DNA from: Eledone cirrhosa
Lineage: Eukaryota
Assembly: GCA_964016885.1 (NCBI GenBank)
Contig: OZ024743.1
Coordinates: forward strand, 114,824,001-114,888,000
DNA length: 64,000 nucleotides
Direction of reading: 5' to 3'
Every line of letters begins with the position of its first letter. Positions within the stretch are counted from its first letter, which is position 1. The translations under genes were made by a program, and so were the position numbers. Below the pieces are notes generated by a model. The model saw only the letters and a list, made by a program, of their open reading frames with translations, did no database searches and was not told where the DNA came from. This document shows positions 14,166 to 31,176 of this stretch, piece after piece.

Positions 14166-14628
14166 TATGTATACGTACATACATATATGTATACAGACGT
14201 ACAGTAGTATGTATATATATATATACATACATGGACACATTTATGTATGTACGTATGGGTTTACCGAACATTTATTAAAATGTTCTGTTTGTATGTAAAC
14301 AAACATCCCGAATTAAGCCGTACAGTGTTCGGCAACCATCGTTGCCCTTTTGTTCAACACTGACAAAAGAACGATGAACTAGTTTCTAGGTTATTAGCTA
14401 TCGTCAGCATAGTATACCTTTCTCGCAGATGATTGAACGTTTGAAAGTATATACTTTCCTTATGCATATTAACGGCTGAGCAGCCTAATTGGCATATCGA
14501 TTGAGCTAGTCGGCCGGGCGTACCGATAACGATAAATGGAAAAAATGAAATTTTATTTCTCACTCTTCGTAATTAAATATAAATATGTACACGTACATAC
14601 ATATATGTATATAGACGTACAGTAGTAT
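14166..14628 (-). mobile_element. Non-coding 418-bp HHR-containing unit with 45-bp terminal direct repeat (retrozyme-like)
   Basis: 14166-14210 repeated at 14584-14628 with 2 mismatches; HHR at 14371-14413; homologous to 30696-31176. Confidence 0.65.
14371..14413 (-). ncRNA. Type I hammerhead ribozyme
   Basis: Minus strand actatg-CTGACGA-tag(ctaataac)cta-GAAA-cta-GTT-catcgt. Confidence 0.75.
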
Positions 14629-14685
14629 TTATATATATATGTATATATATATACACATATATATATACATATATATTTATATATA

Positions 14686-16325
14686 ATATAAAATCAAAAG
14701 ATGGTTAAAAGATTTCCATGTATTTTATTTTGCGCATTTCAAAAACAAATATCATCATGGGATGATATTTGCGTTCTCATCAGATAAAAAGGGAGACATG
14801 ATATGAAGCTTAAAAAACACTTCAATATTTGAAAAATATAATATTTTTTTACCTATTTTGATTCTTTTAAAACAAGATTTTTTAATCACAATTCCTCTTT
14901 TAAATACCAACTTAAAAGAACTAACACGGCACACTCAGAACTCATATGGTCCTTAAAGGACAAACATATTAACTACAACATTTCTTGGAGAAAGGTTTGC
15001 AACGCCTTTCCTTACCTTAATTCTTCCCTATCCTGAACATGCAATCTCTGCCTAGCGGAGAAATTTACCATTATCTCTAATTTAAATTCTATAATAGACG
15101 TACGGATTTATTTTCGCTCTCATTGCATAAATCCCATAGAACTTTCCATAAAGTATACAGCTAATATCTTACTACCTAATTAGTTTAAAATCTTCTTTTC
15201 TCAAACGCTTTTATATTTTTTACAAATATACCCATCTTTCTACCTTATTTCAGTATATTATACAATATTACTCATACTACATCGTTAGCGGTCCCCTAAT
15301 ATTTTATTTGTTAATTTCTAATCTTTAATCTGCAACCTTTACTTATCAATTACTTCTTAATAAATATTATAACTCACTATGGCATTTTCCTTATATTCTC
15401 GGCCATACACATTTTTATTTTTAATATATACTAATATTACCATTAGAGAAATTTTGTAAACATATATTTTTGTCGTTATATTTTTTCTTCCTTGAATTTC
15501 TTCTTTCTTCTCACCTTCCGTGCTCGTATTAAACCTATTATTTACTGTTTCCTATTACAATATATAGAAACAAACTTGGACCCTAATTAATTCCTCTAAG
15601 TTCATAATTCATTTAGCCTTATCTTCATTCACCTTATCTTCTTAATAAATTTTATTTTAATAATACATTTTAATAAATTCCTTTTCCTACATATTATTAA
15701 ACACTTCAATATATAAACCTTAAATAAATAGTATTCTTAATTCCTTTTTCTTTAATCATAAGCATCACCATTCATAAACCTCATTAACTTCTAAATTCTT
15801 AATTATTTTAAAATTATGTATTATCTTACAACGTTTTTTTTTTAATTTCTCTCTGTGAGACAGTGTTTCACAATATTAAAGGTTATCTCTCTTTCACTCA
15901 TTTTCTGGTCCTCTCTCTTCCTTCCTTCTTATAATCCTCCTCCGTCATCCTTTCCTTATTATTTTATTATTATTATTATATTCTTTCTTCCTCTTCGTTA
16001 CCTTTTCCTCCCTCCTCCCTTCCTTTCCTTTTTTCCCAATCTCATATATCCATCTTATTTTATTTTTCATATGTTTATTTAACACTTCACTGCTCGCAAG
16101 TGTTTTTTAAGCTTCATATCATGTCTCCCTATTTTATCTGATTGGAACGCAAATATCATCCCATGATGATATTTATTTTTGAAATGCGCATAATAAAATA
16201 CATGGAACTCTTTTAAGCATCTTTTGCTTTTATATTATTTATACTCCAGTCCTATAAACTGTTGAGTGCTACTTCTCCGATACTTGCATTGCTTTATTGT
16301 GCTACAATAAAACTCACGTCCTACA
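14686..16325 (+). mobile_element. Decayed PLE 3' fragment with inverted pLTR
   Basis: ~14890-15080 reads ELIWSLKDKHINYNISWRKV..CNLCLAEK; 14686-14822 is inverted at ~16098-16240; both arms carry a mutated HHR. Confidence 0.75.
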
Positions 16326-16347
16326 TATATTTATATATATATATGTA

Positions 16348-29162: not shown

Positions 29163-30179
29163 ATATAAATATATATATATATACATATATATACATATAT
29201 ATATATATATATATATATATATACATATATACATATATATATACATATATATATATACATAGATATATATACATAGATATATATACATATATATATACAT
29301 ATATATACTTATATATATGTACATATATATATACATGTATATACATGTATATATACATATATATTCATATACATACATATATATATATATATATATATAT
29401 ATATATATATATATATATATATATATATATATATACATATATATATATATAAATATATATATATATATATACATATATATATATATATATATATATATAT
29501 ATATATAAATATATATATATATATATGTATATATATATGTATATATATATGTATATATATAAAAATGTATTTATATATGTATATATATGTGTATATATAC
29601 ATATATATATATATATATATATATATATATATATATATATATATATATATTTATATATGAGACATATATATATAAGAGATATATATTATAAGAATAGAGG
29701 AGAAATATCTATGATCTAATATATTAGACTAGCTGAATGAGCAGGCCGGGTTACTGCTGTTCATATTCAGAATAGTAACCAATAAATATAAAGATATATT
29801 TCATTTCTTCATAATTATTTCAAAATTTTATATGAAAAAATGTCAAATTTGTAATGTTAATAAATCTATCAATCTTGAAGCACCTCGGGGAAAAGGATAT
29901 TCATTGTGTAAGATTTTGCTGGTGTCCAAATGAATAAATTGTTACTGCCTCCCACCAGTGTATAGATGCAGAAAACAAACAAAATTTAAATTTTGTTCTC
30001 AAATGTCTTGCTTTTTGCTTTTCTCCTCCATATATTTCTGATTATATATATATATATATATATATATATATATATATATATATATATATATATATATATA
30101 TATATATATATATATATATATATATATATATATAAAGTTAAATAAAAGTCAAATGATTAAAATTTAGCTTCGTTTATTA

Positions 30180-30232
30180 CTGCTATATATATTTCAGTGA
30201 CAGCCATCTTTGGCTGTGACCTCTTCAGGCAG
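30180..30232 (-). ncRNA. Minimal hammerhead ribozyme in a palindrome arm
   Basis: Minus strand ctgc-CTGAAGA-ggtcacagcca(aaga)tggctgtcact-GAAA-tatat-ATA-gcag. Confidence 0.8.
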
Positions 30233-30695
30233 TTTGAAGAGGTCACAGCCAAAGATGGCTGTCACTGAAATATATATAGCAGTAATAAACGAAGCTAAAT
30301 TTTAATCATTTGACTTTTATTTAACTTTATTTTACACTACTCCGGAGTAACCAAACCAACCTGCGCACTTCGTCGAGTGCTCCAGCCTTCATACTGAGGT
30401 GTTGGTATACAACCAACATAAACTCAAAATCTCTCTCTCCCTCTCTCTCTCTCTCTCTCTCTCTCTCTCTCTCTATATATATATATATATATATATATAT
30501 ATAATCAGAAATATATGGAGGAGAAAGCAAAAAGCAAGATATTTGAAAAGAAATAATATTATAATATTATAATATTATAAAATTAAATCAAATTGTTTAG
30601 AACTACAAGTGAAGTCATTCTTTTCCTTTTTTCAAATATACCTAACTCTACCAAGGATTTCACACATTTTCTAATATATATATATATTAGAAAAT

Positions 30696-31176
30696 GTTAT
30701 TTGTTTTTATCGTCTCCGTTGAACCGGTACGTACTCACGCTCTATGCAAATTAGTCTGCCCACTACTAATTTTCATAGAAAAAGCATATAACGATATGTG
30801 CTTTTACGATTCTCTAGAAAGGCCGGAAGATAGGTAAATATTGCTGATGAGATGTAACAACATCGAAACTAGTCCAATATTCCTTGTCTGGCTTTCTGGA
30901 GAATAGAGGAAAGGTGTTTCCTCAAAAACCAGTATGACTCTAAAAACCGGTTTGTCTGTGTGTTTACATACAGAATAGCTGGACACTCACAGTAAAGTGA
31001 CCAGTGAAAAACTCGGTACATCTACATATGTACACGTGTGTGTATTCATATGCATACTAGTATTTCAGTATACATATGTGGATGTACATTTTTAACTTAA
31101 TTGTTTAAGCGTCAGTCATACAAAAGTGAGTTACAAACGAAACGAAATTTAATTTCGTTTCGTTATTTGTTTTTAT
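30696..31176 (+). mobile_element. Non-coding 466-bp HHR-containing unit with 15-bp terminal direct repeat (retrozyme-like)
   Basis: gttatttgtttttat at 30696-30710 and 31162-31176; canonical HHR at 30837-30881; several internal hairpins. Confidence 0.7.
30837..30881 (+). ncRNA. Type I hammerhead ribozyme, canonical core
   Basis: aatattg-CTGATGA-gatgt(aaca)acatc-GAAA-cta-GTC-caatatt; 7-bp stem I extendable to ~30811-30900. Confidence 0.9.

Follow-up and report, generated by a model that had tools for sequence, protein, structure and literature searches.

For the retrozymes of animals, mobilization by Penelope-like elements (PLEs) and copying of RNA circles have been proposed, and the sections of the literature drawn on here leave the mechanism open (PMC7229834, PMC7761336, 10.64898/2026.07.22.740005). 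According to the portions cited of one study, a lizard PLE in vitro cleaves AT-rich DNA on both strands and extends each of them, has two adjacent internal reverse transcriptase (RT) starts that bound the tail, and does not need hammerhead (HHR) cleavage for activity (PMC11167929). The PLE layout, as described in the cited part of PMC8557442, has an inverted arm, and a tail is present at just one of the ends.

We analysed a 64,000-nucleotide stretch of the Eledone cirrhosa genome (contig OZ024743.1), hereafter the window. An initial annotation made from the letters alone had singled out two non-coding units in it, A and B. The features concerned are as follows.

14159..14628, minus strand: unit A, a one-armed, aged copy of family A
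14371..14413, minus strand: type I hammerhead predicted in A, with its core at 14407-14377
30674..30696, plus strand: target duplication of ~23 bp left of unit B, read from the sequence and recurring at 31179-31201
30696..31176, plus strand: unit B, a one-armed, young copy of family B
30837..30881, plus strand: type I hammerhead predicted in B, with its core at 30844-30874
31102..31107, plus strand: short 3' site of family B, at phases 228 and 233; unit B contains it internally and does not end there

Two related families of hammerhead-carrying units

The two units had been called homologous, and this held up well. Alignment of the A monomer with doubled B gave a score of 152, compared with a mean of 32 and a maximum of 54 for 500 dinucleotide shuffles, and every sequence block that the initial annotation had listed as shared was present in both units in the same order. 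The periods of 418 nt (A) and 466 nt (B) were confirmed by the terminal repeats: the first 45 nt of A recur with 43 of 45 matches and the first 15 nt of B with 15 of 15. These short direct repeats had been counted as part of the structure of the elements. They are present but incidental, since arms in the family measure from 30 nt to 14 kb and the two copies are merely slightly over one turn long. The boundary of unit A, placed at 14166, had to be moved, as homology extends to 14159. Its 3' end is the short site of family A (see below) and adjoins (TA)n; the 5' end is truncated within the long GTAC/TA hairpin and adjoins a TA-rich run. The best other genomic matches of this aged copy are 87-91% identical. 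Unit B begins at phase 288 and has its 3' end at the long site of family B, phase 302 after the predicted cut, again adjoining (TA)n. The units were said to have no credible ORF, and we agree: in five circularised monomers the longest ATG ORFs were 38-66 aa, GC was 35-38%, and no frame was conserved. A and B are confirmed as homologous copies of two related non-coding hammerhead retroelements, and they fit the non-LTR retrozyme type.

Unit B is itself flanked on both sides by another repeat (window 30553-30687, plus strand, and 31179-31304, minus strand) that belongs to a further high-copy family with 1374 candidates. Two 3' ends separated by ~47 nt occur in this family, as do short inverted arms in (TA)n; the repeat probably represents the 3' terminus of a further PLE-type element.

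The hammerhead that A and B had been reported to have in common was recovered in both, as CUGANGA, stem II and GAAACUAGU(C/U) with a pairing stem I. The units have the core of a type I hammerhead and its three stems, and double changes are seen in stems I and II. From the hammerhead consensus, the cut is predicted after GUU between 14377 and 14376 in A, where stem I and stem II both contain a single mismatch, and after GUC at 30874 in B, where stem I has 7 bp, stem II 5 bp and helix III one pair with a palindromic CUAG loop. An Rfam search of the window gave no match at gathering score. Other hammerhead-like motifs occur in the window. A small mirror-image insertion at 30100-30330 has a different motif with a CUGAAGA core, a palindromic AUAUAU helix III and a 5-bp stem I, and also flanks other loci. 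A further repeat, present in two copies at 9757-9830 (plus strand) and 37760-37830 (minus strand), likewise has a motif with CUGAAGA; stem I of the second copy is AGUCA/UGACU.

Both families are large and dispersed. Counting exact patterns, with 0 control matches, we found at least 25,155 cores of family A and at least 9,579 of family B in the 3.0-Gb genome, at least 1,630 of the latter identical to the core of unit B. At least ~35,000 ribozyme cores represent a sizeable share of the repeat load of this genome. The exact count of family B long ends was 2164; that of short ends, 1088, was inflated by overlapping gap matches and was not used as a copy number. Monomers measure about 420-435 nt in family A (418 in the window copy), 466-540 in A2 and 463-470 in B, and tandem arrays reach 39+ units.

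We aligned 17 monomers of A, A2 and B end to end and obtained a common fold: a basal stem that bears the ribozyme, an outer stem around the long GTAC hairpin, and another hairpin ahead of the long end. Pairing held in 96.7% of cells across A, A2 and B, and 14 of 58 pairs had double changes, far above slid controls; these counts come from about three lineages, and the structure was derived from the same sequences. Folded as circles, as had been proposed, four monomers were 64-69% paired and more stable than shuffles (z -5.3 to -14.7, 40 shuffles each), with the sense strand more stable than the antisense.

Paired 3' ends and the Penelope-like element

In an insertion of family B a minus array comes first and a plus array second, and the 3' end of each array points away from the other into (TA)n. 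Counted from the predicted cut, one arm ends at phase 302 (the long site) and the other at 228 or 233 (the short site). A long end was paired with a short end at 36 of 47 loci, and two like ends were found at none (0/47). When loci were chosen by the ribozyme core only, 21 of 27 were long plus short, none had like ends, and six had one or both ends uncalled; choice by the long end only gave 15 of 20, the remaining five having an end uncalled. The first part of C1 supplied most of the sampled loci. A divergent long-end junction lay within 12 kb of 24 of the 36 short-end junctions on C1; one had a convergent long-end junction there and 11 had none. Short-short pairs were absent (0/36), and the long-long count of 2/100 is one pair comprising two insertions. 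For family A the sites are 276 (long) and 217-224 (short) on a 431-nt reference; both ends were called at 11 of 33 core-picked loci, and all 11 had one long and one short end, on two divergent arms in (TA)n. The short site lies 52-74 nt upstream of the long site in both families, and each site falls at identical columns when A and B are aligned. The positions of the 5' joins are scattered. One B insertion (L298:1712-2273) has its ends in (CAT)n/(ATG)n, not (TA)n.

The initial annotation had taken the different ends of A and B for free permutation points of a circle. They are instead the two fixed 3' sites of the family combined with ordinary 5' truncation, and the fixed sites rule out free circular permutation as the source of the difference. 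Its reading was to fail if genomic copies all shared the same ends, and this proved half true: the 3' sites are fixed and shared, and only the 5' ends vary.

With an inverted arm, a tail at one end and an AT-rich target, the insertions have the layout expected of PLE mobilization. We read the footprint as PLE-type because it matches the two-strand cleavage and two starts of the lizard enzyme (PMC11167929) and the inverted-plus-tail layout (PMC8557442), as far as the cited portions of these papers describe them. A PLE-type enzyme very probably primes from both ends of a break. The strict pairing of long and short ends offers a simple account of the PLE tail being at one end only. A PLE is present between the two units.

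16350..18880, plus strand: two-armed Penelope-like element of autonomous type, both ends in (TA)n
16739-18244, plus strand: PLE frame within this element, a 501-aa RT plus GIY-YIG

Its inverted arm ends at its own long site (16350) and its direct arm at its short site (18880). The frame has an RVT_1 match, and the GIY-YIG match is just below the Pfam cut-off. The family includes 86 scored copies, 96-100% identical. At the 27 of 30 loci with an anchor, the ends, ~41 nt apart in (TA)n, were short in 12, long in 14 and other in one; among four two-armed copies fetched, all three with both ends seen were long plus short. The pLTR of the window PLE contains an atypical hammerhead-like stretch only (18775-18810; UUGAU, GGGC-GUGA-GCCC, GAAA), without the canonical core.

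The genome has several autonomous RT/GIY-YIG families with open frames of up to 1096 aa. At least four of its PLE families (L234-L236, L243, L244; L231-L233) are additional to that of the window and ~25% identical to it, some with frames of 840-1100 aa. Elsewhere in the window are a 643-aa frame with a CCHC-like motif (47836-49767, plus strand) and a 1150-aa endonuclease/RT-like frame of non-LTR retrotransposon type (49786-53238, minus strand).

Mobilization had been attributed to the local PLE. Attribution to the PLE type is supported. The local element has the footprint in common with A and B but lacks homology to them: no homology between A/B and PLE termini was found among 60 PLE loci, which sample few of many PLE families. 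The window PLE is a candidate for the class of mobiliser. The reading of A and B was to fail if they were always attached to PLE ORFs as ordinary pLTRs. PLE protein matches lay near A/B elements at only 10 of 213 loci (partly overlapping), one of them no more than 900 nt downstream of the ribozyme in the same sense and representing a rearranged junction; a pLTR-ORF join was found at none of the 213, and we rejected the view of A and B as pLTRs of a coding element. A PLE piece joined to an A arm at L146 was set aside as evidence of a partner, a deletion between neighbouring insertions being an equally simple explanation.

The template of reverse transcription

We favour a two-ended PLE-type insertion in which one small RNA monomer, probably a circle, is copied repeatedly, and assign this reading a probability of about 0.6. 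Transcripts of the tandem arms would be cleaved by the hammerhead to give monomers of 420-520 nt, cleavage by ribozyme dimers being suggested by the weak palindromic helix III, and the monomers would be ligated into circles. A presumed PLE enzyme would cut (TA)n on both strands, with each 3' end priming at one of the two sites that the footprint records, both of them just 3' of conserved hairpins. Each cDNA would cover anything between part of a turn and many turns of the putative circle and, as observed, is of one haplotype. The point at which the two cDNAs join varies, and in most cases they overlap there by a few bases. Units A and B of the window would be one-armed outcomes.

The arms of one insertion differed at 31 of 2638 diagnostic sites (1.2%), compared with 20.7% between insertions, and 26 of 41 arm pairs were identical within insertions versus 3.5% between. 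Arrays are uniform internally and diverse between loci. In 16 of 53 arrays every copy had a variant that none of the other sampled loci had, and in nine of these arrays it was present in both arms. A>G or T>C accounted for 28 of 43 array-fixed variants and 41 of 218 singletons (p 4e-9); fixed variants are thus not ordinary DNA decay. This spectrum does not establish sense-RNA editing, as A>G did not significantly exceed T>C among fixed variants (16 versus 12). One 9.3-kb insertion has 18 identical full units across both arms, with an A>G cluster that we considered as a private editing scar and rejected, since it occurs in 70 units at seven loci, which are near-identical. Multi-unit variants crossed arms in only 4 of 40 cases, against 255 singletons. 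Together, the uniform arrays, the few cross-arm variants and the spectrum of fixed variants call for a monomer-to-many step at the RNA or RT stage, and a circle provides one. The circular or multimeric template originally proposed is supported by the two-armed insertions, tandem arrays and haplotype uniformity, and the argument from permutation was lost. In run X4 family B appeared as a single self-closing 495-letter contig without the repeat that flanks unit B; a tandem DNA array would look identical, and the contig was therefore given no weight.

It is unlikely, in our estimate, that the same two-ended insertion took as its template an uncut linear tandem transcript of a few homogeneous master arrays, with no circle. 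The seven young loci weaken the case for a circle, because this near-identical lineage could stem from such a transcript; one 17-unit arm could template the others, but no longer source of that arm was found among the 70 matches. L048, where two variants are common only to the outermost turn of both arms, fits a linear multimer, and clean cut-site junctions are equally expected from one. Unprocessed RNA is given as the dominant substrate of the lizard PLE in the cited part of PMC11167929, whereas the ribozyme stems are conserved here with compensatory changes. The rarity of multi-unit variants crossing arms indicates that any sources were not typical aged arrays, and arrays so uniform inside and so diverse between loci would still require a monomer-to-multimer step somewhere.

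More doubtful is a cut linear monomer on which the RT jumps from the 5' end to the 3' end, its own or another's, at each turn. The predicted cut is crossed by 71 of 95 arms, and the one indel in 240 cut-site passages, many of them supplied by long arrays, speaks against such jumps. At L304 the subfamily changes within 69 nt starting at the cut, and the family A arrays L151 and L153 are mixtures of unlike units, those of L151 alternating with boundaries compatible with the cut. Together with L048, these loci are exceptions to the copying of one monomer. L304 and L151 suit a jumping enzyme, but if the RT switched to other RNAs, mixed haplotypes would be much commoner than they are. The 5' ends were mildly in excess at phases 1-25 (10/100 versus 5.4; p 0.04 uncorrected), and there was no pile-up at the cut itself (1/100 at phases 1-5): an apparent excess of 6/96 at phases 1-5 was a BLAST edge artefact, gone with a rotated reference.

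Amplification and homogenization of a satellite at the DNA level from solo pLTR-like monomers, with inverted arms made by fold-back DNA synthesis, a route discussed in the cited part of 10.64898/2026.07.22.740005 and suggested by arrays of 33 and 39+ units and by repeated multi-unit blocks in long arrays (L061, L070, L178, L173, L294), is largely refuted as the primary route and very improbable: both borders have fixed long and short ends in (TA)n, singletons persist in old arrays and indicate slow homogenization, the spectrum of fixed variants differs from DNA decay, and at 5 of 43 two-armed loci each arm has sequence that the other lacks, so that both were copied from a template and not one from the other by fold-back. 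DNA-level amplification remains as a secondary process. Some long arrays were expanded later at the DNA level, and because of their repeated blocks array length alone overstates the number of RT turns.

Repeated copying of a small monomer can be extended to a fuller reading that we regard as evenly poised. The genome would then be a direct record of rolling-circle reverse transcription, in which a PLE-type enzyme copies a covalent, ribozyme-made circle from two fixed starts, one per break end, and now and then switches to another monomer if the circle has been cut; the enzyme would recognise the conserved fold at the sites, a signal that would target any circular cargo to (TA)n. With the template, two start sites, target and candidate enzymes given, the proposed copying of a circle can be tested in the existing in vitro PLE assay.

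Comparison with retrozymes and Penelope-like elements

As judged from sequence features, A and B have every testable feature of animal non-LTR retrozymes. The assignment to a retrozyme family made at the outset is borne out by the type I hammerhead, short, tandem and dispersed units, lack of coding capacity, GC below 45%, self-pairing and the presence of PLEs in the genome. In the accounts cited for coral, mussel and axolotl (PMC7229834, PMC7761336, 10.64898/2026.07.22.740005), retrozymes are likewise tandem units that are non-coding, low in GC and self-paired, and every unit has a single type I hammerhead; they are present in thousands of copies alongside PLEs in the same genome. The same body of work describes in axolotl a one-pair helix III with a palindromic tetraloop (HHR_Amex1), as here, and a U-U at the base of helix II (HHR_Amex2), as in family A. 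Units of 418-540 nt are longer than the about 170-400 nt given in PMC7229834 and within the 51-972 bp given in 10.64898/2026.07.22.740005. Circles and cleavage are demonstrated for the known retrozymes in these texts, whereas the ribozymes of A and B are predictions. Two-armed insertions with paired fixed ends and a haplotype per insertion, found here, are undescribed in the parts of the retrozyme texts cited. The open-access literature gave no account of these families or of a paired-end retrozyme footprint, and preprint supplements may list relatives.

The insertions resemble those of Poseidon of Anolis, an EN+ PLE for which the cited portions of PMC11167929 and PMC8557442 describe an inverted 5'-truncated arm, a tail at one end, an AT-rich or (TA)n target, two internal RT starts and a type I hammerhead. 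Unlike EN+ PLEs as described there, A and B lack an ORF, their arms are many turns of a small unit, and they have no homology to the PLE termini sampled; the tail is 52-74 nt, compared with 30-40 nt in EN+ PLEs. Chlamys derivatives such as MRC1, in the account cited (PMC8557442), are non-autonomous, of PLE type and inserted as multiple head-to-tail copies, as are A and B. According to that account, elements of the MRC1 type generally resemble an autonomous partner at the 3' end, whereas A and B had no such partner in 60 PLE loci, and the Chlamys clade is described as without canonical hammerheads, whereas A and B carry predicted ones. In the cited papers, as far as drawn on here, the return of retrozymes to an animal genome is proposed and not demonstrated; the value of the A and B families lies in the mechanism that their insertions record.
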